Of a DNA stretch of 64,000 bases, positions 1,767-62,839 are shown in pieces; within the stretch, counting starts at the first letter, position 1; each line of letters starts with the position of its first letter. Where the stretch lies: contig DATNBU010000041.1 in NCBI GenBank assembly GCA_035571835.1, positions 11,955 to 75,954 of the forward strand. Reading direction: 5' to 3'. Made by a program: the position numbers and the translations under genes. The notes under the pieces were generated by a model that saw only the letters and a list, made by a program, of their open reading frames with translations, was not told where the DNA came from and searched no databases. The DNA comes from Candidatus Limnocylindrales bacterium (GTDB lineage: Bacteria > Desulfobacterota > Binatia > UBA1149 > CAITLU01).

Positions 1767-1771
1767 AGCCA

Positions 1772-4294
1772 ATGAAAACAACATCCGCTCTGTTTACGAT
1801 TCTTCTGTCTGTTCTGGTCCACGCGTCCGCAGGCTACGCCTGCGATCCGGCTGCGGAGCCGAACAGGAGCGACATCGCCAGCGCCCGTGCGCTGATCGCG
1901 GCAAATTGCGACTGCTTCAACTCGACGCGACGCGATTACGCGCGCTGCGCGAAAGAGCAGGCGACTGCGGCATTGTCCGACAGCACGTGCCTTTCGTACG
2001 TGAAGCGGTGTTCCGCCCAGTCGACCTGCGGACGGCCCGGCGCGGTCACGTGCTGCGTGGCGACATCATCCGGGACGAAGTGCAAGATCGCGAGGGACAC
2101 GGCGCGATGCGATGCGCTCGAGGGAACGGTGAGCGACTGCTCGAGCGTCTGCGACGGCTCTCCGCTGCCGGGTAGCGGCCCGAGCTGTTCGGCGAGTGAA
2201 GTCCGCGTGCTGTCGAACCGCGCCGATCTCGTCAGCAGCGGCGATGCGCTGGTCGAGGTCGTGATCCCCGCGGGCATCGATCCATCGACGGTTACGGTCG
2301 ATGTCGACGGCGACGACGTCACCTCGAGTTTCGCGATGCGGCCGAACGGACGCTACGTGGGACTGCTGACCAACCTCGCGCTCGGACCGAACGTCGTGAC
2401 GGCGCGCATGCCCGGCGCCGAGCGCGAGCTCACGATCACCAATCATCCGAGCGGTGGGCCGATCCTTTCCGGTCCCCAGATCCAGCCGTGGATCTGCCAG
2501 GCAGATGCGGTCGACGCGCAGTGCAACCAGCCGGCAAGCTACACGTACCTCTACAAGTCGAGCGATCCGACCAAGCAGGGATTGCAGTCGTACGACCCGG
2601 AGAGCCCTCCGACCGACGTCGCCGATACGACCACCGACCGCGGCGTGACGGTGCCGTTCATCGTCCGTCTCGAGACCGGCTATCAGGACCGCGACCAGTA
2701 CCAGATCGCGACGCTGTTCCAGCCGAACCAGCCGTGGACGCCGTGGGAACCGCAGCCGCAGTGGAATCACAAGCTGCTGATCATGCACGGCGCGTCGTGC
2801 GGCGTGGAACATCAGACCGGATCAGCTCCTGGCGTTACGACTGGTGCGACCGTCGCCGATACCGCCGGCACCGCCGAGTACGCGCTCGGTCTCGGCTACG
2901 CGACGATGTCGACGGCTCTCGACAACAGCGGCCACAACTGCAACGTCGCCGTGCAGGCCGAATCGCTGATCATGGCGAGGGAACGTCTCGTCGAAGAGCT
3001 CGGCGAACTCGACTACACGATCGGTGCCGGCTGCTCGGGCGGCTCGCTCGCTATCCAGTGGATCGGCAATGCGTATCCGGGATTCTACCAGGGCATTCTG
3101 CCGAGCTGCTCGTTCCCCGACGCGTGGGGCACCGCAACGCAGTTCCTCGATTACCACCTGACGCTTGCGTACTTCACCGATCCGTCGAAGTGGGGACTCG
3201 GCATCGCATGGCTGCCGTCGCAGATGGCGGACGTGCAGGGACACATCTCGATCGTCAACTCGGAAGTCAGCGATGCGGCGCAGTTCCACGTGGCGGTTCC
3301 GACCGATCCGTGCGCCGGCGTCAGCGACGCCGAGCGCTACGATCCCGTGACCAATCCGGGCGGCGTACGCTGCGACATCCAGGACGCCGCCATCAGCATT
3401 CTCGGCCCGCGTCCGCCGGCCGACTGGTCTGCGAACGAGCAGGCGCTCGGCCACGGATTCGCCGGGGTTCCGATCGACAACGTCGGCGTGCAGTACGGGC
3501 TGACGGCGCTGCAGCAGTCGCTGATCACGCCGTCGCAGTTCGTCGACCTCAACGAGAAGATCGGCGGGCTCGACGTCGACGTCAATCCGATTCCGCAGCG
3601 CATCGCCGCGACCAGGCCGGCGCTTGCCAACGCGTACCGCAGCGGCCTGATCAACGAGGGCAACAACCTCGACCAGACCGCGATCATCGACTGCCGCGGA
3701 CCCGATCCCGGCGCGTTCCACGATGCGTATCGTGCGTTCGCGATGCGGGCGCGGCTCGATCGCGAGCACGGCACGCACGCCAACCAGCTGATCTGGGAAG
3801 GGCCGGTCGCGCTGTTCGCCGACGCGCAGTGCGTGAAGAACAGCTTCATCGCGATGGACCGGTGGCTGACGGCCGTCAAGGCGGACAGCACCGACAAGCC
3901 GCTCGCACAGAAGATCATCGACGACAAGCCCGCCGACCTTACCGATCGCTGCTACGACGGTGCAGGCGACAAGCTGACCGACGATCTTTGCGGCGAGGCG
4001 GTCGTGACGACGTTCCGCACGCCGCGCATGGTGGCCGGCGACGCGCTGACGACCGACACCAACAAGTGCCAGCTTAAGCCGCTCAGTCGGAGCGACAACT
4101 ACGGGCCGATCCCGTTCATGGATTCGGAATGGGCACGGCTGCAGGCGGTGTTCCCGGACGGCGTCTGCGACTTCTCGAAGCCCGGCGTCGATCAGCAGGG
4201 AACGATTCCGTGGCAGACGTATCAGGACGACGCCGCCGGCGGCGCGGTCATCTATGGTGGAAGACCGCTCGGTGATGCGCCGGTGTCGGAGTAG
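1772..4294 (+). CDS. secreted protein with N-terminal Cys-rich region and alpha/beta-hydrolase-like core (GAGCSGGS motif, tannase/feruloyl-esterase-like)
   Basis: Signal-peptide-like start MKTTSALFTILLSVLVHASAGYA at ATG 1772, six nt after the upstream stop. The upstream in-frame M at 1517 overlaps gene 1 and was rejected. The G-C-S-G-G nucleophile-elbow-like motif is seen in the translation. Confidence 0.55.
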   Translation: MKTTSALFTILLSVLVHASAGYACDPAAEPNRSDIASARALIAANCDCFNSTRRDYARCAKEQATAALSDSTCLSYVKRCSAQSTCGRPGAVTCCVATSSGTKCKIARDTARCDALEGTVSDCSSVCDGSPLPGSGPSCSASEVRVLSNRADLVSSGDALVEVVIPAGIDPSTVTVDVDGDDVTSSFAMRPNGRYVGLLTNLALGPNVVTARMPGAERELTITNHPSGGPILSGPQIQPWICQADAVDAQCNQPASYTYLYKSSDPTKQGLQSYDPESPPTDVADTTTDRGVTVPFIVRLETGYQDRDQYQIATLFQPNQPWTPWEPQPQWNHKLLIMHGASCGVEHQTGSAPGVTTGATVADTAGTAEYALGLGYATMSTALDNSGHNCNVAVQAESLIMARERLVEELGELDYTIGAGCSGGSLAIQWIGNAYPGFYQGILPSCSFPDAWGTATQFLDYHLTLAYFTDPSKWGLGIAWLPSQMADVQGHISIVNSEVSDAAQFHVAVPTDPCAGVSDAERYDPVTNPGGVRCDIQDAAISILGPRPPADWSANEQALGHGFAGVPIDNVGVQYGLTALQQSLITPSQFVDLNEKIGGLDVDVNPIPQRIAATRPALANAYRSGLINEGNNLDQTAIIDCRGPDPGAFHDAYRAFAMRARLDREHGTHANQLIWEGPVALFADAQCVKNSFIAMDRWLTAVKADSTDKPLAQKIIDDKPADLTDRCYDGAGDKLTDDLCGEAVVTTFRTPRMVAGDALTTDTNKCQLKPLSRSDNYGPIPFMDSEWARLQAVFPDGVCDFSKPGVDQQGTIPWQTYQDDAAGGAVIYGGRPLGDAPVSE

Positions 4295-6740: not shown

Positions 6741-6843
6741 AGCGGAATCACGCGGCCGTGCGATCGTGAGCAGCATCGGGAACGCGGGAAGAAGACGGCG
6801 CGGGACGGCGTTGTCCGCCCCGTCCGCGTTGTCCACGTTGCCC

Positions 6844-8850
6844 ATGCGCGCTGCATGCATCGCAGCCGCGATGAACCTCATCCTGATCACGGGCCTGCCG
6901 GGGAAAGCTGCAGCCGCAGCCGCTTCCAGAAGCGCAACGGCTTCCACGAGCGCAACTTCTGCAAAAGATCCGCAGCATACCGAGGCGCAGCGCCTTCCGG
7001 GTTTCCAGGGGCGTACGCTCGACGGCAAGACGCTGTCGACCGCATCGTTCTCCGGCAAGCGGCTGCTGCTGCTGTGCTTCAATCCCGGCATCGCGCAGTC
7101 GGCGGCGTATGCGCAGGCGCTTGCGAACCTTGCGCCCGAGCGAAGCCGCAACAACTTCGAGATCGCCGGCGTTGCGATGGGGCTCGATCCCGCGGACGCG
7201 CGCGCATTCGCCGCGAAGCTCAAGCTCGACTTCCCGATCTTCGACGACTCGGACGCGACGATCGCGGGCGGCCTCGGGCTGCAGGCTCCGGTGGTCCTGC
7301 TTGGCGTCGACGCCGAAGGTCGCGTCGGCATGGCGATGCTCGGCTTCGAGCACGAGCAGGAGATCCCGGCGGTTGCCGTTGAAGATCACGTCCGCGAGTT
7401 CCTGCGGCTTCCTCGCGCTGACACCGTAACCGGCGGCGCGCTCGATCCGCGGCCGAAAGCGCCGCCGTTCGATGCCGAGCGTCTGAGCGGAGGCGACCGC
7501 TTCCGGCTATCCGATCTGTCGGGCAAGCCGGTGGCGCTGGTGTTTTTCATGCCGACCTGTCCGCACTGCCGCGATGCGCTGCGTTTCTTCAAGGGCGAGC
7601 TTGCGCGCATGCCCGAGAAGAATCGTCCGGTGCTGGTCGGAGTATCGATGGACAGCCGCGCGTACTCGGTCGAATCCACGCTTGCGGAAGAGAAGCTCGA
7701 CTTCTTTCCGGTGCTGCTCGATGCGGACCGCAGGATTGCCTCGGCCTACGGTTCGTTCGCGGGAGTTCCCGACATCGTCCTGATCGATGCGACGGGGCGT
7801 ATCGCGTTCCGGAGCAAAGGATGGAGCGAGGAGCCCGACGCAAGACTGATGCGGATGCGCCTTGCGCGCCTGGCCGGCGCCGAAGTGCCGATGCTGCTCG
7901 ACTCGCACGGATTCAGCGGCAACGACACGTGCGCCATCTGCCATACGATGGAAGCGGCCGCGTGGAAGTACACCGAACACTCGGTCGCATTCGACACGCT
8001 CGTGACGCGCGGAGCAGATCACGATCCGAAATGCGTCGGCTGCCACGTCGTCGGCTTCGGCCAGGCCGGCGGGTACTCCGAAGCCGCGCGCCAGCAGAAC
8101 CTCGAGAACGTCGGATGCGAGACGTGCCACGGCAAGGGCGGCGGACATCTGGACGCGCGATCGAAAACCGCCGGCGGGGCGGCGGCGGTCGACTATCGGT
8201 CCGCCTGCAAAGGCTGTCACGACCCGCAGCATTCGCTCGGCTTCGAGTACGAGAAGTTCCTGCCGAAAGTCTCGCACGCGGCCATCGCCGCGCTCAGCGA
8301 CGCGGAGCGAGAGAAGCTGATCGCCGGACGAAACCGTCCGCGTGACCTGCTGCCGACGGGGTCGGCCGTCGTCGGCTCATCGGCGTGCAAGACCTGCCAC
8401 GAGCATGAATACTTCCTGTGGTCGACGACGGCCCACGCGCGCTCGGTCGAAAGCCTCCGAAAGGAGCGCAAGGAATCGAAGGCCGAGTGTCTTCGCTGTC
8501 ACGTGACGGCCTACGGGCGCCCCGGCGGTTTTCCCGACGGCGAGCCGGTGCGTGCGCACGAGGATCTCGCACGCGTCGGTTGCGAGTCCTGCCACGGCGC
8601 GGGGGCCGAGCACGTGAAGAGCGGCGGCAAGCAGCTTGCCGGCATCGTAACGCTCGGCGACAAGTGCGACTCGTGCGTGATCCTGCAGATCTGCGGCGGG
8701 TGTCACGACGACGCGAACGATCCCGACTTCCGCTTCAACGTGACCCGCAAGATCGATCTCCAGCACCACGGGCGGGCGCCTGCGGTGCCGGAACGATCCG
8801 TTGATACGACGCGCGATACGAGCAGCGCCGCGACCAGCGCCGGCAACTAG
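6844..8850 (+). CDS. fusion protein: two thioredoxin/TlpA-like domains (second with CPHC) plus octaheme c-type cytochrome (8 CxxCH)
   Basis: The translation shows MPTCPHCRDALRFF...VPDIVLIDATGRIAF, a redoxin fold. Eight heme motifs follow: CAICH, CVGCH, CETCH, CKGCH, CKTCH, CLRCH, CESCH, CGGCH. Signal-like start MRAACIAAAMNLILITGLPG at 6844; an alternative start is 6766. Confidence 0.75.
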   Translation: MRAACIAAAMNLILITGLPGKAAAAAASRSATASTSATSAKDPQHTEAQRLPGFQGRTLDGKTLSTASFSGKRLLLLCFNPGIAQSAAYAQALANLAPERSRNNFEIAGVAMGLDPADARAFAAKLKLDFPIFDDSDATIAGGLGLQAPVVLLGVDAEGRVGMAMLGFEHEQEIPAVAVEDHVREFLRLPRADTVTGGALDPRPKAPPFDAERLSGGDRFRLSDLSGKPVALVFFMPTCPHCRDALRFFKGELARMPEKNRPVLVGVSMDSRAYSVESTLAEEKLDFFPVLLDADRRIASAYGSFAGVPDIVLIDATGRIAFRSKGWSEEPDARLMRMRLARLAGAEVPMLLDSHGFSGNDTCAICHTMEAAAWKYTEHSVAFDTLVTRGADHDPKCVGCHVVGFGQAGGYSEAARQQNLENVGCETCHGKGGGHLDARSKTAGGAAAVDYRSACKGCHDPQHSLGFEYEKFLPKVSHAAIAALSDAEREKLIAGRNRPRDLLPTGSAVVGSSACKTCHEHEYFLWSTTAHARSVESLRKERKESKAECLRCHVTAYGRPGGFPDGEPVRAHEDLARVGCESCHGAGAEHVKSGGKQLAGIVTLGDKCDSCVILQICGGCHDDANDPDFRFNVTRKIDLQHHGRAPAVPERSVDTTRDTSSAATSAGN

Positions 8851-9815
8851 GCCGGCGCAGGGCACGACAGCGTCAGCGCACCGCCGACGGCTTTCTTCAG
8901 GATCGCAAGCGCATCGGATGCTGCAACCGAGCCGTTGGCGTTGACGTCGCACACCGTCACGTCACAGACTTTGGCCGAGACCGCGGACTGCAGCGCGAAC
9001 AGCGCGTCGGTTGCGGTCACCGTGCCGGAATCGTTCGGATCTCCGCACGCGAGCGCATCGCATCCTGCGTCGCAGTATTCGCCCGGAGCCCAGGTCGTAT
9101 CGCCGTCGTCGCAGGTCTCTCCCGCAGACGTGATGCCGTCGCCGCATGCGACAGCCACTGCGCAGTCGGCGTCGTCCTGGTCGTAGACACCGTCGCCGTC
9201 GTTGTCGAGACCGAACAGACCGAACCTGTTCTCGTTGCCGGGTGATGCGGCTGCGTTGCACGGATCGACGGGCTTGCTCGCATGCGCGGAGTCGGGCGTG
9301 AAGTAATACGGAGGCTTTTCGTCTTCGCCGGCCGGCGCGCCGTCGCTGTGGCAGTCGGCGCAGTCGCTGATGCCGGCGTTCGCATGATGCAGCCGCAGGC
9401 CGGCGCCCATTCCGCAGTTGGCCGGATCGATCGTCGTGCTGTTGCCGGTGACGCACTCGCCGGTCGCATCGGCCGCGCGCCCGTGACAGCCGAGGCACGA
9501 GACCGGGCTGTATCCGGATATGCCGGCCGAAAGGCCGATGTAGACCGGGCTTCGCGGAGTTCCCGCCGGCGGCTGGTGGCAGACGTTGCACGTACCGCTG
9601 CCCATGAACGCGCTGTGGCCGGTCATGAGATTCGTGCCCCAGCTCGTTCCGTCCGAATCGGAGACGTACGTGCCGGAGTTGAACTCGCCGTGGCAGCCGG
9701 CGCAGCCCGACCACGTCGCATAGGCATGGGCGGACGGAACCCACGTCGCGAACGCCAGATGAGCGACCACTACGGCCGCGCCGACACGAAGGCAGTTCTC
9801 TAAATTCGTTTTCAT
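8847..9815 (-). CDS. secreted tetraheme c-type cytochrome with C-terminal two-repeat dockerin-like (EF-hand-type Ca-binding) module
   Basis: Signal peptide MKTNLENCLRVGAAVVVAHLAFA with RBS GGGAGAG. Four heme motifs: CAGCH, CNVCH, CLGCH, CADCH. C-terminal loops DPNDSGTVTATDALFALQSAV and DVNANGSVAASDALAILKKAVG match the 12-residue dockerin Ca loop at positions 1, 3, 5 and 12, each followed by an L-rich helix. Confidence 0.75.
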   Translation of the reverse strand: MKTNLENCLRVGAAVVVAHLAFATWVPSAHAYATWSGCAGCHGEFNSGTYVSDSDGTSWGTNLMTGHSAFMGSGTCNVCHQPPAGTPRSPVYIGLSAGISGYSPVSCLGCHGRAADATGECVTGNSTTIDPANCGMGAGLRLHHANAGISDCADCHSDGAPAGEDEKPPYYFTPDSAHASKPVDPCNAAASPGNENRFGLFGLDNDGDGVYDQDDADCAVAVACGDGITSAGETCDDGDTTWAPGEYCDAGCDALACGDPNDSGTVTATDALFALQSAVSAKVCDVTVCDVNANGSVAASDALAILKKAVGGALTLSCPAPA

Positions 9816-10012
9816 TTCCGCTCTCCCTTGCTTCCTGTTCGCCGTCGCATCTGCATCAGACATCGCCTGCGGGAGCCCGATCCCGGGCCGCCGACCTTGC
9901 GTATGCACGGTCCATTCCACGTTGCCGACCGGCTGCTCTCGGACGACATGCTTCTTGCAGGAAAGGAGTTGGCAGATACGGCCCTTCGAAGGCCGTGAAA
10001 GGAGGGCCTGTC

Positions 10013-12487
10013 ATGAAAGCTGTCGCAGAGCGGAGTCCGGGAGCGGTTTTCTCAGCAGTTTTTGTCTTTCTGCTCGCATGGATTGCGGTGCCGCAGGCTT
10101 TTGCGGCGAAGGATGACTGTTCCCAGCCTGTCAGCGGCGGCGACGGCCCCGTGACGAGCGACTGCCTTCATATCCTGTCGACCGCCGTCGGTTCCCAGAT
10201 CTGCGAGACTTCCTGCGTGTGCGATGTCAACGGCAGTAATTCGATCACGTCGATTGACGCATTGATGTGCCTGCGGGCCGCCGTCGACCTCGAGGTCGAC
10301 ATGAATTGTCCATGCGGTGACACGACGACCACGACCATCACCACGACGACGACCACGACCATCGAAGTAACGACGACCACGACCACCACGACGACCACCA
10401 CGCTGCCGGTGGCCGGCGTGATGAACGAGGCGTGCCCGGTCTGCCACGGCGATGGGCGGGTCATCGACGTCGCGTCGTATCACCCCGGCCTGCAGACGAT
10501 TCCGGATATCAACGCCAGCATCGACAGTGTCGCGATCGTCGTGGACGACGTGGCCCACACCGCCAGGCTGACCGTCAACTTCACCGTGACCGATCCCGAT
10601 GGCGATCCGATCCCGGACCTCGGCGCGCCTTCGCCGACGCAGGCCACGCGTTTCGCGTACCTGCGTTTCGCGCTGAGCGAGCTCGAGCCGGCCGAAGACC
10701 TGAGCGGTGATCCGGACAGCTGGGTCAGCTACACGACCGGCGACCGGACGCCCGCCAACCTGACCGACCACGGCGACGGCACCTACACGTACCTGCTCGC
10801 AACCAATCTCTACACCCTCTACATCCCGTCGCTGCGGCACCGGCTGCTGATGACTGTGTCGGGCGCAATCGTAGCGCAGTCGAAGAACGTGACGTACGAC
10901 TTCGTGCCCGAGCAGCTGCCGGGTCCGTTCGTGTTCGACACCAGCCGCGACATCGTGACGACGACCGCGTGCAACAGCTGCCACGGCCGCCTCGGCAGCA
11001 CTCTTGGCGATGCGAGCTTCCACGGCGGCAGCCGCTACACGACCGAGGCCTGCGCGACGTGCCACACGACGTCGCTGGTCGGCGGCAGCGCGGAGTTCGC
11101 GCCGATGGTGCACAAGATCCACGCGGCCCAGAACATCGAAGGGCTCGCGGATTTCTCCGAGGTCACGTACCCGCAGGACGTGCGCAACTGTGCCACGTGC
11201 CACGCCGGCACCGACGGCTCCAACTGGTACACGCGGCCGTCGCAGACGGCATGCGGCTCGTGCCACGCCGATGTCGATTTCGTAACCGGCGAGAATCACG
11301 ACGGCGGTCCGCAGACCAATGCGGCGTGCGTCGACTGTCACTCCGAGGACGCCATCAAGGAAGTGCACGTCACCGACATTTCTACGCCGCATAACCCCGA
11401 CGTTCCGGAAGGCGCGGTGAGCTTCGAGTACGTGCTCGAAGAAGTGACCGTGAACGACAGCAGGCAGGCGGTCGTACGCTTCCACATCAACGCCGACGGC
11501 GAGCCTGTCGATCTCAGCACCATCCCGCCTGCCGGATTCAGCGGCGGTCCGGGCTTCCTCGTCGCCTATGCGCTGCCGCAGGACGGCGTCGAAGTGCCGG
11601 TCGATTACAACAACCTCGGCCGCAGCGCAGGACAGCCGGCGACCGTCACGCTCGCAAGCCTGTCCGGCAAGCTGACCGGTACTCCCGAGAGCTACACCGC
11701 GGTGCTCGACGCCGCTCCGTTCCCGTCCGGCGCGACGATGCGCGCGGTCGCGCTGCAGGGCTACTTCACGCAGCTGATGGGCAATCCCGCCAGCACGACG
11801 GACGATCTCGCGCGCCACACGCCGTCGGTCGTCCAGCCGGTCACCGGCGATCCGGTGCGACGTCAGGTGGTCGAAGTGGCCAAGTGCCTCAACTGCCACG
11901 AGAGCCTCGAGCTGCACGGCGGCAATCGCGTCAACAACGTCCAGGTGTGCGTCACGTGCCACGACCCGAACCTGAGCAGCAGCGGTCGCACCGTGAACCC
12001 GGCCGACGTGACGCAGGAACAGAAGGATGCGCTCGCAGCGGCCGGCCACGACCCGAACGATCCGCTCAGCTGGCCGGAGACATCGATGCAGCTGAAGAAC
12101 CTCGTGCACGGGCTGCACTCGTCCGGAATGCGCAACTTCGATTACGACTTCGTCCGCAATCGAAACGGCGCGTCGTACTTCAACTGGAGCGAAGTGACGT
12201 TCCCGGGCATCCTCAGCAACTGCGAAACCTGTCATTTGCCGGGGACGTACGGCGTCGACCTGCCGGACGGAGTACTGGTGAGCACGAACGTGACCACGAG
12301 CGGCCCGAATGCGACGAGGGCGAGCATCCTCGCGGCTCGTGACAGCGTGCCGAACGATACCGACGAGATCCTGAGCCCGACGGCCGGTCCGTGTTCGATG
12401 TGCCATGACAGCGTGCCGGCAGCGGCCCACATGGAACAGAACGGCGGCGTGATCGGCAAGACGCGCCTCGCTGCTCTGGGCAACTGA
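10013..12487 (+). CDS. secreted decaheme c-type cytochrome with N-terminal dockerin-like module and poly-Thr linker
   Basis: RBS AAGGAGG lies 6 nt upstream of ATG 10013. The protein starts with a signal peptide. A dockerin-like loop DVNGSNSITSIDALMCLRAAV follows, then the linker TTTTITTTTTTTIEVTTTTTTTTTTT. Ten CxxCH motifs are present: CPVCH, CNSCH, CATCH twice, CGSCH, CVDCH, CLNCH, CVTCH, CETCH, CSMCH. Confidence 0.8.
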   Translation: MKAVAERSPGAVFSAVFVFLLAWIAVPQAFAAKDDCSQPVSGGDGPVTSDCLHILSTAVGSQICETSCVCDVNGSNSITSIDALMCLRAAVDLEVDMNCPCGDTTTTTITTTTTTTIEVTTTTTTTTTTTLPVAGVMNEACPVCHGDGRVIDVASYHPGLQTIPDINASIDSVAIVVDDVAHTARLTVNFTVTDPDGDPIPDLGAPSPTQATRFAYLRFALSELEPAEDLSGDPDSWVSYTTGDRTPANLTDHGDGTYTYLLATNLYTLYIPSLRHRLLMTVSGAIVAQSKNVTYDFVPEQLPGPFVFDTSRDIVTTTACNSCHGRLGSTLGDASFHGGSRYTTEACATCHTTSLVGGSAEFAPMVHKIHAAQNIEGLADFSEVTYPQDVRNCATCHAGTDGSNWYTRPSQTACGSCHADVDFVTGENHDGGPQTNAACVDCHSEDAIKEVHVTDISTPHNPDVPEGAVSFEYVLEEVTVNDSRQAVVRFHINADGEPVDLSTIPPAGFSGGPGFLVAYALPQDGVEVPVDYNNLGRSAGQPATVTLASLSGKLTGTPESYTAVLDAAPFPSGATMRAVALQGYFTQLMGNPASTTDDLARHTPSVVQPVTGDPVRRQVVEVAKCLNCHESLELHGGNRVNNVQVCVTCHDPNLSSSGRTVNPADVTQEQKDALAAAGHDPNDPLSWPETSMQLKNLVHGLHSSGMRNFDYDFVRNRNGASYFNWSEVTFPGILSNCETCHLPGTYGVDLPDGVLVSTNVTTSGPNATRASILAARDSVPNDTDEILSPTAGPCSMCHDSVPAAAHMEQNGGVIGKTRLAALGN

Positions 12488-12492
12488 ACGAA

Positions 12493-12537
12493 CGCAGGGA
12501 ACCTCGCAGCCATGAAGCGGCTGCGAGGTTCCCTGCG
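12493..12537 (+). terminator. strong stem-loop (19-bp perfect stem CGCAGGGAACCTCGCAGCC / GGCTGCGAGGTTCCCTGCG, 5-nt loop) 6 nt after the decaheme stop
   Basis: Perfect inverted repeat read in the sequence. No canonical U-tract follows (GTCTTTCACC), so it may act as a rho-dependent or processing signal rather than an intrinsic terminator. Confidence 0.55.
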
Positions 12538-12895
12538 TCGATCCGCCGCGTCTTTCACCGTCGAAAGCGCTTCACCTGCAACTTTCTGCTTTGCGCGACG
12601 GTCGCGCATCAAAAAAGCATTGCCGATTTCGCGACAATAGAGACATCTCCCCGAGTTTGCTGAGGTCGCAACGCGTCAGCGCCTCGCATTGCGAAGCGTT
12701 TCGACCAACCATTCCGTTCCCAGTTTCAAAAAATTCCGGTGCGCAGGATCGCCCGGCGGGCGTGAAGCGCTTGTTCTACCGGCGCCACGGCTGTACCCGT
12801 CCTCCTCAAGCGCACGGCGGGGGAGGGGAACGGTGCGTATCTGCGGACTCATTGGTTCGCAGATCCCGCCTGTCGCTTCACCTAGGGAGGTTCCG

Positions 12896-14920
12896 ATGCG
12901 CTCGAGACTGACGCTCTGCGTGCTATTTGCCGCCACGCTCTGGTATCCGCTGCAGGCTGCGGCTACCTGCGGAGACGGCATACTCGAACCGCTCAACGGT
13001 GAGCAGTGCGACGTACCCGGCGGCACCTTCTGCTGCATCGGCTGCCAGTTTCGAGGGTCGGAGACGCTGTGTCGCGCTGCGACCGGCGCCTGCGACGTCG
13101 AAGAATACTGCGCAGGCAACAGCACGGCGTGCCCGGCCAACAGCGTCAAGCCGAGCAGCACGATCTGTCGCGAGTCTCCGGGATCGGTCGCATCGCAGGT
13201 CGAATCCACACGCGGGCCGAGTGATCCGGACACCACCGGAACGGTCTCGGTCGGCGCGTCGTCGAGCTTCCAGTTCAAAATCGGAACCGGCGGCCTGCTG
13301 CGGACAGTTACCGCGGTGCCGTCGAGCTCGCTGCAGACGTTCGTCGACGACATCAATGCGCTGAAGAACAGCGCACCGCTTTACCAGAGGGTATCGGCCA
13401 ACCTGTTCAATGCCGGGAGCAACTGCCAGGCCGATGCGCCGGGCAACAACTCCTGTCTGTCGAACTCGGATTGCTCGGCCAACGTCGACTGCGCCACCAC
13501 GTACAAGGTCCTTCTGCTTGCCGAGACTCGCGGTGCGGACTCGATCATCGTCCAGACCGACCAGACGCAGCTCAAGTTCGCGACCCGCATCGCCGGCGCC
13601 GATGACCCCTGCAACGCGACCGAACGGTGCAACGGAACCAGCGCGAGCTGTCCCGCCGATTCGTTCCAGAATTCGTCGTTCGTCTGCCGTCCGTCCGCCG
13701 GCTCGTGCGACGTCCAGGAGAACTGTCCCGGCAACGCTTCGCTCCTCTGTCCGGCCGACACGGTCCTGGCGTCCACTACCGTGTGCCGATCGTCCGCCGG
13801 TGTCTGCGATCCGGCGGAGCTCTGCACGGGCAGTAACGGCGTTTGTCCGACCGATTCGAAGAGCACGGCGATCTGCCGGGCTTCGGGCGGCGGCTGTGAT
13901 CCGGCCGAGGTATGCGACGGCATCGCCGATGCGTGTCCTGCAACTGCCCTCAGCAGCAACGGCACCGTGTGCCGTGCACCTGCGGGAGGCTGCGACGCCG
14001 CGGAAACCTGCGACGGCGCAAGCGTCGTGTGCCCGGCCGACGTCAACCTGCCCGCGAGCACGCTTTGCCGCGCCGATGTCGGCCAGTGCGACGTTGCCGA
14101 CTTCTGCACCGGCACCACCAGGGATTGCCCGGCCGACAACTTCGAGCCCGACGGCACGACCTGCGACGACGCCGATGTCTGCACCGTCAACGACCAATGC
14201 ATCGGCGGCGTCTGCGTCGTCGATCCCCAGCATTGCGGCGACGGCGTGCTGCAGCTGACCTGCACCGAGGAGTGCGACGACGGCAACGTCGACGACGTCG
14301 ACGGATGCTCGTCGACGTGTGAGGCCGAGCCCGGGCTCGGCTGCCCGTACTTCCCGCTGTCCGGATGCCGCCAGTCGACGGTGCCGGGCAAGTCGCGAGT
14401 CGACATTCGCGACGAAGAGAAAATCAGCGGACTCAAGTTCCAGTGGCGCTGGAAAAAGGGAGCGGCGACTACCGAAGCTGACTTCGGCGATCCGCTCACC
14501 GATGCGCCGGCCGGAACCAGCTACACGCTGTGTCTGTACGATGCGGTCGGTCTGCTCGCGCAGGCCACCGCGCCTGCCGGCGGCGAATGCGGCGTCAAGG
14601 AACCGGGACCGTGCTGGACCGGGCGCCCGTCGCAGGGCTTCAACTATCTCGATTCCGACCAGTCGATCGAGCCGGACGGTGTCAAAAGCGTCGATCTCGT
14701 CGCGGGTCCGGATGGCAGGGCGTACATCGGGCTCAAGGCAGAAGGCGGACTGTTTCCGTTCCCGTCCAACGGCGGGTTCGGAGGCATCGGCGACCTGACC
14801 GGAATTGCATCGCCGCTCGTCGTGCAGCTCCAGAACACCAGCGGGCTCTGCTTCGAGGCAACCTACAGCGCGCCGTTCAAGCGGCAGCTTCCCACTCGCT
14901 TCCAGGCAAGGGCGAACTGA
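12896..14920 (+). CDS. secreted cysteine-rich repeat protein (Myxococcus-type Cys-rich / disintegrin-like repeats)
   Basis: RBS AGGGAGG precedes ATG 12896, followed by signal peptide MRSRLTLCVLFAATLWYPLQAAA. At least 10 tandem protein repeats of the form CRxxxGxCDxxExCxGxxxxCPAD. Confidence 0.7.
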   Translation: MRSRLTLCVLFAATLWYPLQAAATCGDGILEPLNGEQCDVPGGTFCCIGCQFRGSETLCRAATGACDVEEYCAGNSTACPANSVKPSSTICRESPGSVASQVESTRGPSDPDTTGTVSVGASSSFQFKIGTGGLLRTVTAVPSSSLQTFVDDINALKNSAPLYQRVSANLFNAGSNCQADAPGNNSCLSNSDCSANVDCATTYKVLLLAETRGADSIIVQTDQTQLKFATRIAGADDPCNATERCNGTSASCPADSFQNSSFVCRPSAGSCDVQENCPGNASLLCPADTVLASTTVCRSSAGVCDPAELCTGSNGVCPTDSKSTAICRASGGGCDPAEVCDGIADACPATALSSNGTVCRAPAGGCDAAETCDGASVVCPADVNLPASTLCRADVGQCDVADFCTGTTRDCPADNFEPDGTTCDDADVCTVNDQCIGGVCVVDPQHCGDGVLQLTCTEECDDGNVDDVDGCSSTCEAEPGLGCPYFPLSGCRQSTVPGKSRVDIRDEEKISGLKFQWRWKKGAATTEADFGDPLTDAPAGTSYTLCLYDAVGLLAQATAPAGGECGVKEPGPCWTGRPSQGFNYLDSDQSIEPDGVKSVDLVAGPDGRAYIGLKAEGGLFPFPSNGGFGGIGDLTGIASPLVVQLQNTSGLCFEATYSAPFKRQLPTRFQARAN

Positions 14921-15022
14921 CCGATGCGGCGCGCGATGGAAGCAGCCGCGAGTGCGGCGACGAATCGGATGGGGAACTTCACCGGAAACTCTGCCGGCAA
15001 TTCTTCAATGAGGAACTCTGCG

Positions 15023-16105
15023 ATGCGCAAGACGAGAACGATTCTTCAGCGATGGACGGTCGGCATGGTCGTCATGGCCATGGCCGTTGCCGGGCCTGCG
15101 GCCGCAGCGCCGGTCGATGATGCCAGGGCCCTGATCAACGCGATCGTCGCCACGGGCGATACCGAGCGTGCGTGGCAACTGACGCAGGTCGTGGATTCGA
15201 TGTCGGAGGCCGAGCTCGAGACGTTCGCGAATTCCGGCATCCGCGAGCTGACGGGCCTGATGAACCAGCAACGCGAAGCAATCGAAGCGGCGCGCGACAT
15301 CGGGTTCCGGCTGCCGGCCGAGCCCCCGTCGCCGGTCGTCAGAAACCACAACGACGATTTCCCGCTGTTCACCGACTACACGCCCGACTCGACTAGCTGT
15401 CCGAACTCGCCGGACCAGACCTCGATCGGAACCATCGTCGCGATCCGGTCGACGCTGGTCGGTGCGCAGGCCGCCTACAAGATCGCCAAGGCGCTCTACG
15501 ACGACACCAATCCGGTCTGTCACCAGCTCGTCGTTGCAATCGGCGTCGGCAGCAACCCGCAGACAGCCGTGTGCATCGGCCTCGGCATTGCGGAGACGGT
15601 CGTGCACGTGGCCTTCGATGTCACGGCGAAAGCTCTCGAGCTGATCGATTTCTGCGACGACGAAGTCGACTACGCGAAGATCCGCGCGACCTTCCACGAC
15701 CTCGAGTTCATTCACAATCAGCTGACCACGCACGATACGGACGAGAAGCTTCAGGTCACCACGCACGACGACGAGGAGCAGGCCTTGCTCGACGACCTGC
15801 TCGCGCGCCTCGCACGCATCGAGGGCAAGCTCGATCTTCTCATGAAGAGCCAGCTCGAGATTGCGATGGACCGCCGCGGCGGACGCTCACGTCCGAGTGT
15901 GTTCTACGAGGACCGGCTCGACGAGCTGTGCGGCTATGCGCAGGAAGCCGTCGACGATCTTCCCGACGTCTACCTGGTCGCCGACCAGTGCCAGGGGCTG
16001 ATCAACGAAGGACTTTCTCTCAAACTGACGGACCCCAAGCTGGCAGCGGACACGTGTGTCGCGGCCTTCGTACGAGCCACCGCCGGCTCGTCGACGCTGC
16101 AGTAG
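15023..16105 (+). CDS. secreted hypothetical protein, paralog A (conserved C-terminus RPSVFYEDRLDELC...DDLP...TDPK.AAD.C)
   Basis: Signal peptide MRKTRTILQRWTVGMVVMAMAVAGPAAAAP with RBS GAGGA. The paralog downstream shares the acidic HD/E-rich helical segment and the C-terminal block. Confidence 0.65.
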   Translation: MRKTRTILQRWTVGMVVMAMAVAGPAAAAPVDDARALINAIVATGDTERAWQLTQVVDSMSEAELETFANSGIRELTGLMNQQREAIEAARDIGFRLPAEPPSPVVRNHNDDFPLFTDYTPDSTSCPNSPDQTSIGTIVAIRSTLVGAQAAYKIAKALYDDTNPVCHQLVVAIGVGSNPQTAVCIGLGIAETVVHVAFDVTAKALELIDFCDDEVDYAKIRATFHDLEFIHNQLTTHDTDEKLQVTTHDDEEQALLDDLLARLARIEGKLDLLMKSQLEIAMDRRGGRSRPSVFYEDRLDELCGYAQEAVDDLPDVYLVADQCQGLINEGLSLKLTDPKLAADTCVAAFVRATAGSSTLQ

Positions 16106-16171
16106 CGTGAACGACATGATGCAGATGATGTCTCCGCGAACGATGGGTTCGAATACCGGTGATGTTCCGCA

Positions 16172-16207
16172 GAGGAATCCCAAGAGGAATCCCACGAGGA
16201 ATCCAAT
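16172..16207 (+). repeat. 3 x 12-nt tandem repeat GAGGAATCCCAA/CAC/AAT ending in the start codon of paralog B
   Basis: Read directly: gaggaatcccaa gaggaatcccac gaggaatccaATG. Each unit contains an SD-like GAGGA. Confidence 0.7.
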
Positions 16208-17300
16208 GATCCGTAAAGTCCTGCGACGAACGACAGGGATGTTTCTTCTCACGCTTGCCGTATTGGCCGTAGCGCTGCCGCAAGCGGCTGTTGCGTCCGA
16301 CCGCGACGAGACACTGGAGCTGGCCGATACCATCCGCGACCTCGGATATTCCGGCGAAGCCGCGCAGATCGAGCAGCTGGTGGCGGGAATGTCCGATTCC
16401 GAGCTCCAGCTTCTCGGGGATGCCGGCTTCTTCCAGATCTCTTCCAAGCTGAAAGCGTACCAGGTGGCGAAAGAGCGTGCGGACGCGCTCGAGTTCATCT
16501 CCGTCGAGCCCCAGGGCGCAAGCCAGCGTGCGATCCTGTCCGACTACGATCTGTCGACCTTCCCCGCGGCGGTCTATCCGCCGCAGGATTCGACCTGCGT
16601 CAACGCGGTCGGGACGGTCAGCACCGCGGCAGTCAAGGTCGGGCTCAAGGCTACCGTTTTCACGCTGAGGGAAGCGCTGACGGCCGCCGACGGTGCGCAG
16701 CGGGCGGCGATGGCCGGCTGCAACATCATCGTCATCGCGATCGGCATCGGCGGCAACGCCGCGTCGGCCTGCGTCGTCTCAGCCATCGTTCTCAGCGTGG
16801 CCGACGCTGCCCTGTCGGTCGGCGAAATCTTCATCGACAACCTGATCTTCTGCGACGAACAGGTGCATTTTGCGGAATCCGAAGCCTCCGCTGTTCGCGC
16901 GGAGTACCTGAGCCACCAGCTCGAGCTTCACGATCTCGAGCTCGGCGAGCAGATCGCCACGCACGACGTGGAAGTCCAGGCCAAGGTGCAGCAGGCGATC
17001 GCGCGCGCGGCCAGCATCGAAGGCAAGATCGATCTCGGCCTGAAGACCCAGCTCGAAGTCGCGATGGATCGCAAGACCGTCACGCGTCCGAGCATCTTCT
17101 ACGAGGATCGGCTCGATGAGCTCTGCGATCTCGCGCAGGAGGCGATCGACGATCTGCCGGCCACCTACATCCTGGCAACGAGGGCGCAGACCCTCGTCAA
17201 CGACGGAATGGCGTTCAAGATCACCGATCCGAAGCGCGCGGCCGACGAGTGCATTCGTGGATTCAGCATGGCAACCACGAAGTCGACCGAACACAACTAG
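16206..17300 (+). CDS. secreted hypothetical protein, paralog B of 15023..16105
   Basis: Signal peptide MIRKVLRRTTGMFLLTLAVLAVALPQAAVA. C-terminal block RPSIFYEDRLDELCDLAQEAIDDLPATYILA...TDPKRAADECI is shared with paralog A. The upstream part of ORF 16056 has low GC3 and is judged non-coding. Confidence 0.65.
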   Translation: MIRKVLRRTTGMFLLTLAVLAVALPQAAVASDRDETLELADTIRDLGYSGEAAQIEQLVAGMSDSELQLLGDAGFFQISSKLKAYQVAKERADALEFISVEPQGASQRAILSDYDLSTFPAAVYPPQDSTCVNAVGTVSTAAVKVGLKATVFTLREALTAADGAQRAAMAGCNIIVIAIGIGGNAASACVVSAIVLSVADAALSVGEIFIDNLIFCDEQVHFAESEASAVRAEYLSHQLELHDLELGEQIATHDVEVQAKVQQAIARAASIEGKIDLGLKTQLEVAMDRKTVTRPSIFYEDRLDELCDLAQEAIDDLPATYILATRAQTLVNDGMAFKITDPKRAADECIRGFSMATTKSTEHN

Positions 17301-17331
17301 GCGGCCGTAGCTCGCCGACTCGGGCTTCCTG

Positions 17332-18447
17332 GTGACGGGAGTGGATATCTCGAAGGCTGCCGTGCTGTCGCGAAGCGAAGCCGCGGCTTCGAGCGCGTCG
17401 TGGCGGAGCGCGGTTGCCGCCGGGCGCGGCTTCATCGCTTCGGGACTCTACGACAGCGTCTTCTTCCTGCTGGCACCGGTGATCGCGCTCGCGATCGTTG
17501 CCGTGGTCGCGGTGCTGCCGCCGGCGAAGGGGATTCCCGCTGTGTTCCGCGAGCCGGCCGGGCCGGCGATCTTCGTGATGCTGGTCCTTTCGCAGGCGCA
17601 CGCGGTCGCGGTGTTCTTTCGAAGCCACGGCAATCGCGCGATCTTCGTGCGTCACCGCTTCGCATTCGTGGTCGTGCCGGTCCTCCTTTTTGCCGGGCTC
17701 ATGACTTCGAACTGGGTGATGGCCGGTGCACTGGTGCTGGCTCCGTTCTGGGCCGTCTACCACCTCGGCATGCAGAGCTTCGGGCTCGGCCGCATGTACG
17801 ACGTGCGCTGGGGCAACTCGCCGGAGACGGGCCGCACGCTGGACTACTGGCTGCAGCAGCTCTTCAACCTCGCGCCGTTCCTTGCCGGTTGGAGCCTTCT
17901 GCCGCACCTGCAGTCGCTGCGGATCTTCGAACGCGTCGGCTGGCATGCGCCGGCGGCGTGGCTCGATGCGCATCGTTCGATCGAGGGTGCGCTCGCCGGC
18001 GTGTTCCTCGTGGCCGGACCGGTCTTCCTCGCGTACTACGTTTATTCGTACCGCAGGTTCATGCAGCAGGGCTACAGGCTCTGCCCGCAGAAGGTCGTGC
18101 TGCTGGCGACGACGGGCGTCGTCTCGGTGGTTTCCTGGGGATTCCTCACGTCGTGGAAGGCGGTGTTCGTGATGAACCTTTTCCACAGCGTGCAGTATTT
18201 CGCGCTGGTCTGGTGGGCCGAGCGCAAGAACCTCGGCCGCGTGAGCCGCCTGCAGCGCGTCTCGTTCGGCACGCCGGTCCTGCTCGTCGCGTTCCTCGTG
18301 ATCACGCTGTCGCTCGGAACTTTTCTCCAGGCGTACGGTCGCGACTACACGGTGATGCGCTGGACCGCGTCGCTCGCGCTCGTGATCTCGCTGATGCACT
18401 ACTGGTACGATGGATTCGTGTGGTCGGTGCGGCGCCGCGAGGTCTGA
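17332..18447 (+). CDS. polytopic integral membrane protein, hypothetical (GTG start)
   Basis: Multiple hydrophobic helices and high GC3. The overlapping alternative-frame ORF 17400.. was rejected over this interval. Confidence 0.55.
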   Translation: MTGVDISKAAVLSRSEAAASSASWRSAVAAGRGFIASGLYDSVFFLLAPVIALAIVAVVAVLPPAKGIPAVFREPAGPAIFVMLVLSQAHAVAVFFRSHGNRAIFVRHRFAFVVVPVLLFAGLMTSNWVMAGALVLAPFWAVYHLGMQSFGLGRMYDVRWGNSPETGRTLDYWLQQLFNLAPFLAGWSLLPHLQSLRIFERVGWHAPAAWLDAHRSIEGALAGVFLVAGPVFLAYYVYSYRRFMQQGYRLCPQKVVLLATTGVVSVVSWGFLTSWKAVFVMNLFHSVQYFALVWWAERKNLGRVSRLQRVSFGTPVLLVAFLVITLSLGTFLQAYGRDYTVMRWTASLALVISLMHYWYDGFVWSVRRREV

Positions 18448-18458
18448 CGCCGGGTCCC

Positions 18459-60579: not shown

Positions 60580-61089
60580 GACGTCCTCCGTTCGATCCGG
60601 GGCGGGAAAGCGCAGCTCAGCGGTGCGTGGGTGTTTCTTAGCTGTCGTCGTTTTGACTTGTCGAGCGCGGCGCGCACCTGACAGAGTCGGCAGCGTCGGA
60701 AAAATGAGATCGAGCTACCGCATTGGGTGATACATAGAGGTGCGCTTAAGCGAAGTCCGAGCGATACCCAATTCCGCGGCTGGTCGTCCACCGGCCGCAG
60801 CTGGCGCCTCGAAAACTTGATCGGAAATCCTCGAAGCGTTCCGCGCAACCGGTGTCGATCAGCCGCCCGCTGGCTGATGCTCGACCGAGAGGCGTCCGTC
60901 GACGCTGCGCACGGTCCTGCACGCTTTAGCCTTCTCTACATTGCAGGTGATCGATCCTCGGAATGACACCAATGCGCGCGCACCCACGGCCGCGGGCATC
61001 GACGAGATCGAATGGAAATCAGTGAGCCTCCGGATTTCGGATCCTACGGACTCATTACTCCGACGAGCGCCGGTGTGGGAGCCCAATGC

Positions 61090-62659: not shown

Positions 62660-62839
62660 AATGCGGGCCGCTAGGCGATATGACGGACGCGGAGAGATGC
62701 GTAGTTCAGCCGGCGGCCGCGACGTCTAGGGTCGTTCCGCTAGTATACAGCCCACCCGGTCGATGGCGCACCGATAGCAGATCTTAACTAGTCTCAGGCT
62801 TCTCCTGCGAGAGAAGTCTTTGCAGAGGGGCGAAGATCC

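Follow-up and report, generated by a model that had tools for sequence, protein, structure and literature searches.

Two adjacent genes in the 64-kb window (the whole stretch of DNA analysed here, which is part of a Candidatus Binatia genome) were found to encode Sec-exported multihaem cytochromes, B and C, that carry homologous dockerin-like modules, C-terminal in B and N-terminal in C. Comparison with related proteins supports the view that, in B and C alike, the module stands where relatives carry a putative membrane anchor, and the sharing of such an anchor-replacing module suggests that these electron-transfer proteins may be docked non-covalently at the cell surface. The features are listed in Table 1, in which the likely starts of genes A, B and C were taken from gene calls (for the B and C region, those of the relative locus L001).

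Table 1. Features of the window and of X-domain genes on related contigs
Feature	Position	Strand	Remarks
Gene A	6766..8850	+	Likely start 6844 (M27) or 6871 (M36); 8 CxxCH
Gene B	8847..9815	-	ORF open to 9920; called start M36 (9815); 4 CxxCH
B dockerin module	8850..9044	-	Two Ca-loop+helix repeats (DPNDSGTVTATD…, DVNANGSVAASD…); four Cys
B Cys-rich acidic repeats (myxo_disulf_rpt/DUF4215-like spacer)	9051..9212	-	
B tetrahaem domain	9213..9725	-	~200 aa; ends …NENKFGLxGLDNDGD
Divergent B/C intergenic region	9816..10012	.	Gene calls in relative locus L001
Gene C	10013..12487	+	ORF open from 9995; likely start M7 (10013); 10 CxxCH
C N-terminal dockerin-like module	10112..10321	+	70 aa; eight Cys
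C Thr-rich linker	10322..10402	+	27 aa, 23 Thr
C decahaem core	10433..12484	+	CxxCH at aa 147, 326-445, 631-800
Gene D	12896..14920	+	Neighbour, membership unproven
Genes E and F	15023..17300	+	E 15023-16105, F 16206-17300; neighbours, membership unproven
X-domain lipoprotein	L152:5914-7575		
X-domain lipoprotein	L119:444-1544		
X-domain lipoprotein	L126:71-1153		
X-domain lipoprotein	L093:3993-5063		
X+module adaptor	L155:1736-2974		
X+module adaptor	L098:1662-2399		

Judged from its sequence, protein C is a true decahaem cytochrome of the OmcA/MtrC family, predicted to act as a terminal reductase or oxidase. It scored 348.3 bits against the TIGR03507 OmcA/MtrC model (cut-off 209.3; aa 187-821) and 158 bits against PF22113 of Pfam, and its PDB matches were MtrF (3pmq, 2e-33), MtrC and OmcA. 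Like the Shewanella proteins MtrC, OmcA and MtrF (TIGR03507; PDB 4lm8, 4lmh and 3pmq), it combines ten CxxCH motifs and the MtrC/MtrF II-IV pentahaem-domain architecture with Sec export, but it differs from them in the spread of its haems: domain II contains five motifs and domain IV four, and the remaining motif, instead of being the fifth haem of domain IV, lies on the N-terminal side of domain I. All haem-binding Cys and His residues were invariant in the alignment of homologues (A3). A second difference lies at the N-terminus of C, where a SPase I signal peptide (cleavage between …PQAFA and AKDDC) lacks the lipobox that would mark C as a lipoprotein of the OmcA/MtrC type, and where a dockerin-like module and a poly-Thr linker follow. 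The linker is encoded by tandem ACG/ACC repeats and is polymorphic in length, being 8 residues (24 nt) shorter in a near-identical strain (L001/P0001).

Protein B is a small tetrahaem cytochrome of surface type, which starts with a signal peptide (cleavage between …PSAHA and YA) and continues through the tetrahaem domain and a stretch of Cys-rich acidic repeats to a dockerin at the C-terminus. Its counterpart in L001 is a gene call of 322 aa, and about 20 full-length homologues have the same architecture. The haem domain, which gave faint Pfam matches to the MtrC/MtrF II-IV domain, is a portable unit whose homologues end in TSP3 plus dockerin, FG-GAP, fn3, PKD or MYXO-CTERM, or have no tail. 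The Cys-rich repeats scored under the cut-off against both TIGR02232 (18.8 bits) and DUF4215 (14.9 bits), and the cassette of B-type repeats plus dockerin also occurs on lipases and on LamG and FG-GAP proteins.

The modules of B and C are homologous, since an HMM built from the C-type module matched that of B over its full length (E 3.3e-12). In B, both Ca loops are intact, the Pfam match to Dockerin_1 (PF00404; aa 293-340) was marginal (23.1 bits; cut-off 22.9), a precomputed PF00404 match was present in several homologues, and the top PDB sequence matches were all dockerins that covered both repeats (E about 0.05). In C, the first repeat is degenerate, having kept its helix but lost its Ca ligands, and the second contains the sole intact Ca-loop consensus (DVNGSNSITSID); the module scored 13.3 bits against PF00404 within the full protein, which is under the cut-off, but 29.2 bits when scanned alone. 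It is kept in at least 16 homologues, in which its eight Cys residues are invariant or nearly so. Modelled with AF2 at low confidence (pLDDT 56), the C module contained two helices, and the top 14 Foldseek matches were all dockerins, although with non-significant values (E 0.23-4.5, TM 0.3-0.4). The original prediction of a tetrahaem protein with a two-repeat dockerin-like C-terminus is thus borne out for B, as is its description of C as a decahaem protein with a signal peptide and a dockerin-like module, and the Ca-loop segments of B and of the isolated C module both passed the HMM check; for C, however, the poly-Thr linker, which had been given as 26 residues, has one more, and only one Ca loop is intact.

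The position of the module was compared with that of anchoring elements in relatives. Among 75 GTDB-species loci, nearly all homologues of C start with a lipobox, which is often followed by a collagen-like GXX spacer, and the module was present on OmcA/MtrC proteins only in a small clade of Binatia (the window, L001-L003 and L007), where the lipobox is missing. Similarly, relatives of the B haem domain have MYXO-CTERM (P0187), FG-GAP, fn3 or TSP3 plus a canonical dockerin at the position of the module. Since the module occupies the position of MYXO-CTERM in homologues of B and of the lipobox in homologues of C, the same job is implied, namely that of keeping an exported protein at the predicted surface location. 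Unlike the MYXO-CTERM, PEP-CTERM and lipoprotein signals, which sort proteins covalently and from a fixed position, the module may be placed at either terminus and has the character of a binding domain.

The module is not confined to cytochromes. It is encoded in 119 metagenome stretches, with at least four copies on one 686-kb contig, and lies at either the N- or the C-terminus among 92 ORFs bearing it. Its cargo is diverse, including malectin, NHL, PKD, reprolysin, CAP and amidohydrolase domains and others; MtrC-type proteins made up 2 of the 51 scanned, and about 11 of the 92 ORFs, representing several types of cytochrome, had at least one CxxCH. The presence of the module on many non-cytochrome exoproteins argues against an assembly dedicated to cytochromes.

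In 8 of the 80 loci fetched with the module, we found ORFs containing an uncharacterised domain of about 115 aa, here termed X, with the motif …LGALQFxVxY…GFTGP…C.F…; these loci come from other metagenomes and are not assignable to the genome of the window. The X-domain lipoproteins have one to three copies of X with poly-Thr linkers between them, and most have a lipobox. In seven of the eight loci the X gene was adjacent to a module gene (L119, L126, L153 and L134), fused with it (L098 and L155) or part of a five-gene X-D-D-X-X cluster (L152). This architecture looks like that of scaffoldins, and X itself may weakly resemble cohesin. Specifically, X had no Pfam match, its only domain-like match in a PDB profile search was the A. 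fulgidus cohesin 2xdh (E 0.93), and hhalign of X with cohesin gave a probability of 42% and a pairwise E of 2.6e-4 over 74 columns, which is not significant. An X-domain HMM found no match in the window or in 81 loci fetched with MtrC or B. Cohesin (PF00963) was likewise without a match among the scanned ORFs of the window and in Pfam annotations precomputed for 10 related loci, the window contained no scaffold-like gene, and no locus holding a dockerin-MtrC contained a cohesin, X-domain or other scaffold gene. The earlier proposal that dockerin-like modules dock the cytochromes on a scaffold therefore holds in that the modules are real, homologous and at the position of an anchor, with X-domain lipoproteins on related contigs, but not in that the window supplies a cohesin or a scaffold.

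On balance, we think it probable that the modules of B and C are docking tags of a general display system, which would have the two cytochromes among its clients and would not be a machine dedicated to cytochromes. B and C are both exported by Sec, and the same Cys-rich, type-I-dockerin-like, Ca-binding module replaces a covalent membrane anchor in both; in C, the module is N-terminal and leads into a poly-Thr spacer that is probably O-glycosylated, and in B it lies at the C-terminus, after the Cys-rich acidic repeats. The module would thus act as a position-independent protein-docking tag, predicted to bind in a Ca-dependent manner and to keep exported proteins attached, without a covalent bond, to a receptor at the cell surface, and from there the cytochromes may serve in extracellular electron transfer. 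In one relative, L002, genes for a 7-haem lipoprotein cytochrome and a 746-aa beta-barrel lie directly downstream of the dockerin-MtrC gene; this neighbourhood resembles that of mtrCAB, with its periplasmic multihaem cytochrome and its large beta-barrel, and is consistent with an outer-membrane conduit. The best candidates for the receptor would be the X-domain lipoproteins of the related contigs, together with the adaptors that bear both X and the dockerin-like module.

Several features of this arrangement resemble the type I dockerin-cohesin system of cellulosomes (Clostridium thermocellum and relatives; PF00404/PF00963), including the Ca-loop+helix repeats of about 22 residues (two in B, one intact in C), the portability of the module to either terminus, the Thr-rich linkers and, on related contigs only, anchored multi-domain scaffold-like proteins and adaptors with both types of module. 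In contrast to cellulosomes, however, the host belongs to an uncultured Gram-negative (diderm) lineage, the module has four to eight conserved Cys residues (disulfides), the cargo includes multihaem cytochromes instead of carbohydrate-active enzymes, the putative receptor domain X is not seen as a cohesin by Pfam, and attachment would be through a lipoprotein instead of SLH or sortase. Non-cellulosomal dockerin and cohesin modules have also been reported in ANME archaea and syntrophic SRB, which carry out extracellular electron transfer; the dockerins described there belong to ABC-transporter binding proteins, S-layer proteins and adhesins, and the authors speculate that they may help in attachment to surfaces or in 'MHC adhesion' (PMC9012536, PMC5244752, PMC10553843); fusion to OmcA/MtrC-type or other multihaem cytochromes is not described in the parts of these papers on which we draw.

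It is possible, though we consider it doubtful, that the module has no protein receptor and is instead an element for folding or matrix binding that takes up Ca and is stabilised by disulfides, like TSP3 or RTX-like repeats; it would then bind exopolysaccharide, LPS or mineral surfaces and leave the cytochromes released or embedded in a matrix rather than docked on a scaffold. The tight adjacency or fusion of the module with X-domain lipoproteins in seven loci, among them the adaptor-like proteins, and the specific replacement of lipid anchors by the module both argue against such an element, as does the binding of proteins by characterised dockerins, such as those of cellulosomes. It would nevertheless agree with the lack of cohesin among the window ORFs scanned, the great diversity of the cargo, the non-significant homology of X to cohesin and the pairing of dockerin with TSP3 Ca-binding repeats in B homologues of other lineages, and also with the setting of the dockerin-MtrC genes, which in L003, L082, L083 and L085 are orphans amid housekeeping genes.

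Far less probable is the reading of B and C as ordinary soluble periplasmic cytochromes, in which the dockerin-like segments would be vestigial or chance EF-hand-like matches with no tethering. The marginal Pfam score of B, the low score of the C module within the full protein and its low-confidence model could be taken in this sense, as could the gene content of the window, in which tblastn with the 7-haem cytochrome and the 746-aa barrel of L002 found no MtrAB-type porin-cytochrome pair; in this respect the window, with neither mtrA nor mtrB and with a Candidatus Binatia host, differs from Shewanella mtrCAB. A vestigial or chance origin is difficult to reconcile, however, with the conservation of eight Cys residues and the occurrence of the module in so many metagenome stretches, with the lipobox or MYXO-CTERM of relatives at the same position, and with the characterised members of the family of C, matched in the PDB, being outer-surface lipoproteins. 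Thr-rich linkers, which are typical of extracellular modular proteins, point in the same direction.

The product of gene A is secreted and joins two domains of thioredoxin fold (TlpA/ResA-like) to an octahaem part that is made up of two cytochrome c554-like tetrahaem units, in agreement with its original description as an octahaem cytochrome fused to thioredoxin/TlpA-like domains. Pfam matches were AhpC-TSA (91.6 bits) and Redoxin (69.6 bits) for the thioredoxin part and two stretches of Cytochrome_C554 (PF13435; 97.8 bits, cut-off 20.8) for the haem part, NCBIfam matches were ResA and the UshA-like PCGU C-terminal region, and PDB matches were ResA/TlpA (ResA to 2.8e-9) and cytochrome c554 (1bvb, 2.3e-11). 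The active-site CxxC (CPHC) characteristic of TlpA/ResA proteins is present only in the second thioredoxin domain, the first being degenerate and without CxxC, and the tetrahaem units and HMM matches place the haem part in the cytochrome c554 family. No homologue of A was found beside other homologues of B or C in the loci compared. Gene A is thus an independent periplasmic or extracytoplasmic thiol-disulfide oxidoreductase-octahaem fusion that lies beside the B-C pair by happenstance, with no syntenic link.

An exact motif count gave 8, 4 and 10 CxxCH in A, B and C, or the 22 haem sites in three adjacent genes that had been predicted, against a chance expectation of about 0.01 CxxCH per protein for Cys and His contents of roughly 3% and 2%. 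Gene B lies on the minus strand and is convergent with A, the two genes overlapping at their stop codons, whereas B and C are divergent, so that the three genes do not form one operon. The region between B and C, in which no consensus promoter was found, is possibly a shared control region. The divergent B-C pair is the sole part of the neighbourhood that recurs elsewhere (L001 and L086), and genes A, D, E and F adjoined no B or C homologue in the other loci compared; the proposed single cluster of A, B and C is therefore not a conserved unit. Least probable of all is an assembly encoded by A, B and C at this locus, in which B and C would dock onto each other or onto scaffolds formed by D, E or F: the adjacency of the genes, the recurrence of the B-C pair and the position of the secreted proteins D, E and F directly downstream would fit such an assembly, but A is convergent with B, no other B or C homologue has A, D, E or F beside it, the C-terminal domain of D is not cohesin-like, the orphans E and F each consist of a single helical domain without repeats, and the X-domain HMM found no match in D, E or F. 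The features earlier assigned to D, E and F were found, but the absence of cohesin-like or X domains, as well as of any B or C homologue beside them elsewhere, speaks against a role as scaffold or partner. Specifically, D is secreted and has disintegrin-like, Cys-rich repeats, with six stretches matching the Disintegrin model of Pfam and a C-terminal beta-sandwich domain of Binatia type. E and F, which had no relatives in Pfam or PDB, are secreted paralogues with 36% identity and belong to a small orphan family with 62 representatives among 1.84 billion proteins.

Six genes were delineated in the region from codon-position G+C and an ORF listing (see the table), the window having a high G+C content of about 0.65, and an identical gene order was found in the near-identical strain L001 (ENA ERZ27256655, 192-kb contig), whose gene calls place the starts as listed. 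The numbers of CxxCH motifs, eight in A, four in B and ten in C, are far above those expected by chance from composition and agree with the 22 haem sites predicted over these three adjacent genes. A and B are convergent, with overlapping stop codons, and B and C are divergent, with ~197 bp between them; this arrangement, with B on the minus strand, means that A, B and C do not form a single transcription unit. A scan of 6.4-15.2 kb revealed no promoters or terminators above shuffled expectation.

Genes of the window region (A to F) and loci encoding the X domain
Feature	Position	Strand	Start by L001 gene calls	Description
A	6766-8850	+	M36	ORF
B	8847-9920	−	M36 (window 9815)	ORF
C	9995-12487	+	M7 (10013)	ORF, product 830 aa
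D	12689-14920	+	12896	ORF
E	14924-16105	+	15023	ORF
F	16056-17300	+	16206	ORF
L119	444-1544; 1723-3612			X gene directly upstream of module gene
L126	71-1678			X directly upstream of module gene, as in L119
L153	342-2228; 2232-3413			Module gene, then X gene
L134	9683-11689; 11592-12899; 12706-14691			Module gene, then two X genes
L152	5914-7575; 7687-9672; 9797-11776; 11895-12413; 12417-13793			Five-gene cluster: X, module, module, X, X
L098	1662-2399			One protein: module – poly-Thr – X
L155	1736-2974			One protein: X – poly-Thr – X – module
L093	3993-5063			X-domain locus

The domain assignments of the three cytochromes are of very high confidence. In protein A, a pair of AhpC/TSA-Redoxin domains (TlpA/ResA-like), of which the first lacks the CxxC motif kept in the second (CPHC), precedes two tetrahaem units resembling cytochrome c554; these matches bear out the octahaem protein fused to TlpA-like domains that had been described, and A, a thioredoxin–octahaem fusion, stands apart from B and C, its position beside them not being conserved. 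Protein B consists of a signal peptide, a ~200-aa tetrahaem domain, Cys-rich acidic repeats (with sub-threshold matches to myxo_disulf_rpt and DUF4215) and a C-terminal module. In protein C, an SPase I-type signal peptide precedes a 70-aa module with eight Cys, directly after which comes a Thr-rich linker of 27 residues; the poly-Thr nature of this linker was predicted correctly, but not its length, given as 26. With 348 bits against TIGR03507 (OmcA/MtrC; cut-off 209), 158 bits against PF22113, and MtrF, MtrC and OmcA among its PDB matches, C is, judged by sequence, unambiguously a member of the OmcA/MtrC family, and proteins of this type bear the public annotation name 'OmcA/MtrC family decaheme c-type cytochrome'; an exact look-up of the 830-aa ORF product gave no entry, owing to where the start codon is placed. 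This membership is solid, but the lipoprotein anchor of the family, when tested for, was absent in C, and MtrAB linkage was likewise tested for and absent in the window. The poly-Thr linker (window 10322-10402) is 24 nt, or eight residues, longer than in L001, which suggests that the ACG/ACC repeat has undergone slippage. Members of the OmcA/MtrC subfamily to which C belongs have the haem motif 'CxxCHGxGRxxDV…HPG' on the N-terminal side of domain I (C aa 147-170, window 10433-10500), and a very similar one is found at the extreme C-terminus of more distant homologues (P0031, P0036, P0047, P0062 and P0077); it appears that a haem-binding segment has changed place (been permuted) in this family.

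B ends, as predicted, in a dockerin-like module, which scored 23.1 bits against Dockerin_1 (Pfam gathering score 22.9) and aligned by sequence with solved dockerins across both repeats. The C module scored 13.3 bits in the full protein and 29.2 bits when scanned alone, and its HMM (16 homologues) matched the B module over its full length (E 3.3e-12), indicating that the two modules are of one family. The Ca-loop consensus is kept only in the second repeat of the C module, and the claim of an N-terminal dockerin-like module in C thus stands as to its presence but not as to the integrity of both repeats. An AlphaFold2 model of this module has two helices at low confidence (pLDDT 56); the best Foldseek matches of that model were almost all dockerins, none significant, and dockerins were also top-ranked when the C-module profile was compared with PDB sequences, but at an E of 0.3. 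At the sequence level, the modules can be assigned to the dockerins, and the original observation holds overall once strand, repeat integrity and linker length are corrected.

Judged by source names, the homologues closest to C appear to come from Candidatus Binatia, and about 17-19 of the 120 best have the same N-terminal module (consensus, GDCGQPV…DC.FIL..AVG…C…C.CD.N..G…..DAL.CL..VVG…C.C); the next clade has a lipobox start instead, usually followed by collagen-like GXX repeats. When one genome per GTDB species was scanned, 75 loci were found to encode a relative, nearly all complete relatives having a lipobox start, with or without a collagen-like spacer, and the module being present only in Binatia loci, in proteins without a lipobox. 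The architecture of B is common to about 20 homologues; elsewhere its haem domain is joined to TSP3 repeats and a canonical dockerin (L005 and L006), or to FG-GAP repeats, fn3 or a PT-rich linker, or has a MYXO-CTERM sorting signal (P0187) or no tail. In both families, the module occupies the place of the surface anchor of relatives, which is the main argument for a role as a tether. The B homologue with TSP3 repeats and canonical dockerin in L005 (2774-10960) is clustered with two more TSP3–dockerin proteins, one of them a PD40/Tol-like beta-propeller, and with several small proteins having a PEP-CTERM-like 'VPIPAAVWLLGSAL…RRR' tail.

Scanning metagenomes with the module alignment gave 119 encoding stretches, and 80 loci were kept, at least four of them at separate places on one 686-kb contig. 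Among 92 bearing ORFs, the module is either N- or C-terminal, and its cargo includes malectin, NHL and other beta-propellers, PKD, Big_1, reprolysin-type peptidases, CAP, amidohydrolase, esterases and the EB_dh haem domain, MtrC-type cargo being found in only two of 51 module proteins scanned. At least one CxxCH is present in about 11 of these ORFs, whose products include decahaem, tetrahaem, ≥5-haem, trihaem-like and monohaem proteins; cytochromes are recurrent clients of the module tag. The diverse cargo and the position at either terminus indicate that the module is a general, position-independent exoproteome tag, and a tag of this kind, not tied to one terminus, is more readily explained as a binding module than as a sorting signal. 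In L151, the gene for a truncated ≥5-haem protein with a dockerin module (3-1739, minus strand) lies beside that for a monohaem protein (1977-2870, plus strand) whose module has Thr/Ser-rich linkers on both sides.

When the neighbours of module genes were clustered all against all, the X domain was noticed within a heterogeneous cluster of proteins with Cys-rich repeats; the other recurring cluster was of acyl-CoA dehydrogenases, which are housekeeping proteins. X is an uncharacterised domain of ~115 aa (alignment consensus, …C.VTF.L……LGALQ….Y..A.G.F.G..G.V.C……ND.D…L……G..GP…A.C.F……P.A.DF..T..DA…), and its HMM gave matches in eight of the 80 loci fetched with the module, none in the window and none in the 81 loci fetched via C or B. 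In seven of the eight, X adjoins or is fused with a module gene. Most X proteins have a lipobox start and one to three copies of X with poly-Thr/Ser linkers between them, a layout like that of anchoring and adaptor scaffoldins. No Pfam match was found for X; among PDB sequences, the Archaeoglobus cohesin 2xdh was the only non-nanobody domain match of its profile (E 0.93), with an alignment that begins at the first strand and extends in register over the 'GSINLILSYP' and 'GISGDGSLFYVKF' segments, and hhalign of X with the 2xdh fragment gave a probability of 42%. The apparent homology of X to cohesin is weak and not established.

On our best reading, C is a decahaem cytochrome of the surface type with the small cytochrome B as its companion, and the dockerin-like module, not a lipid, most likely tethers both to the cell surface, an idea that we consider reasonably probable; metal reduction, metal oxidation and interspecies transfer are candidate redox functions. 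The two would be clients of a lineage-wide docking system, the receptor of which is probably the X-domain lipoprotein family, although we place less confidence in this receptor than in the tethering. More tentatively, and as a possibility short of probable, Binatia-like bacteria may practise a cellulosome-style surface display, in which outer-membrane X-domain lipoproteins (distantly cohesin-like, tandem and on poly-Thr stalks) capture dozens of exoproteins with disulfide-rich dockerins, including OmcA/MtrC decahaem and smaller cytochromes, so that haem proteins could cluster as a modular, exchangeable EET array, or 'cytochromosome'. The module, which in C keeps one Ca loop, might instead be a Ca-binding or matrix-binding element without a partner, a reading that appears rather unlikely beside the association of X with module genes. 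That B and C are periplasmic cytochromes with vestigial modules is very unlikely, given where the module sits relative to the anchors of relatives.

The least probable reading is that of the original prediction, an assembly encoded by the locus itself with D, E or F as scaffold or partners. BLAST of the 81 loci with A, D, E, F and the two downstream membrane proteins gave matches in L001 alone, and the neighbourhoods of dockerin-MtrC genes (L002, L003, L082, L083 and L085) are entirely unlike each other, as are those of B homologues (L005 and L006). A conserved operon was rejected on this BLAST and on 10 homologue neighbourhoods, near which A, D, E and F are not kept; the sole recurring part is the divergent B–C pair, also present in L086 (B 64% and C 75% identical). 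E and F, 36% identical to each other, were rejected as scaffold proteins: a search of 1.84 billion proteins gave just 62 representatives of their orphan family, they have no relatives in Pfam or the PDB (sporadic helical-repeat matches only), and neither contains internal repeats. Cohesin had no Pfam match among about 46 window ORFs, and the partners suggested in the original prediction are therefore not supported. In L002, a 7-haem lipoprotein cytochrome and a 746-aa beta-barrel with an aromatic last residue are encoded directly downstream of the dockerin-MtrC gene and look like a porin-cytochrome conduit; tblastn found no homologue of either in the window, and MtrA/MtrB were rejected there on this negative result. 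In L004 (8711-9427), a 238-aa protein, a further type of cytochrome with a dockerin tag, is encoded directly upstream of a lipobox/collagen-type MtrC homologue (P0020); its N-terminal dockerin, of two repeats, is joined by a PT-rich linker to a trihaem cytochrome part (three CxxCH).

Mtr-type surface multihaem cytochromes are the paradigm of bacterial extracellular electron transfer and are known as lipid-anchored partners of the porin-cytochrome complex, and cohesin-dockerin pairs are already in use for artificial enzyme scaffolding. If the lipid anchor has been swapped for the module in a clade of Binatia, a widespread uncultured lineage, terminal reductases could be attached non-covalently and be exchangeable or spaced on stalks, the design principle of the cellulosome would have been carried over to respiration, and many 'orphan' dockerins outside cellulolytic bacteria would gain a concrete function. 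Such a system would also point to a capacity of Binatia for redox reactions with metals or electrodes, name X-domain lipoproteins as a testable receptor family and, as a natural cytochrome version of cohesin-dockerin pairing, offer a ready-made toolkit. PMC9012536, PMC5244752 and PMC10553843 deal with dockerin/cohesin proteins of ANME archaea and of the sulfate reducers that partner them, and one review among them speculates on 'MHC adhesion'. No description of dockerin-fused OmcA/MtrC cytochromes, or of OmcA/MtrC-type cytochromes in Binatia, was present in the open-access papers found.

Downstream of C, five co-directional genes with short gaps (window 12896-20117, plus strand) encode the disintegrin-like Cys-rich protein D, the orphan paralogues E and F, a 371-aa membrane protein 3' of F (17332-18447) and an HTTM-domain protein (PF05090; about 18498-20117) with a weak MauE match; this set, which is not kept beside other MtrC homologues, may be a unit of its own around the Cys-rich secreted protein. 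Upstream (window 3-4294, plus strand) are secreted redox/hydrolytic proteins, the first a RoxA-like protein (di-haem cytochrome c) truncated at the start of the window and the second a DUF6351 protein (tannase-like, 743 bits) with a Cys-rich N-terminal extension. Towards the other end (60001-64000), the G+C content falls from about 0.65 to 0.55-0.61, and only short ORFs are present, with an HTH_3 regulator at 63529-63882 (minus strand), and this part may mark the border of foreign or mobile DNA.
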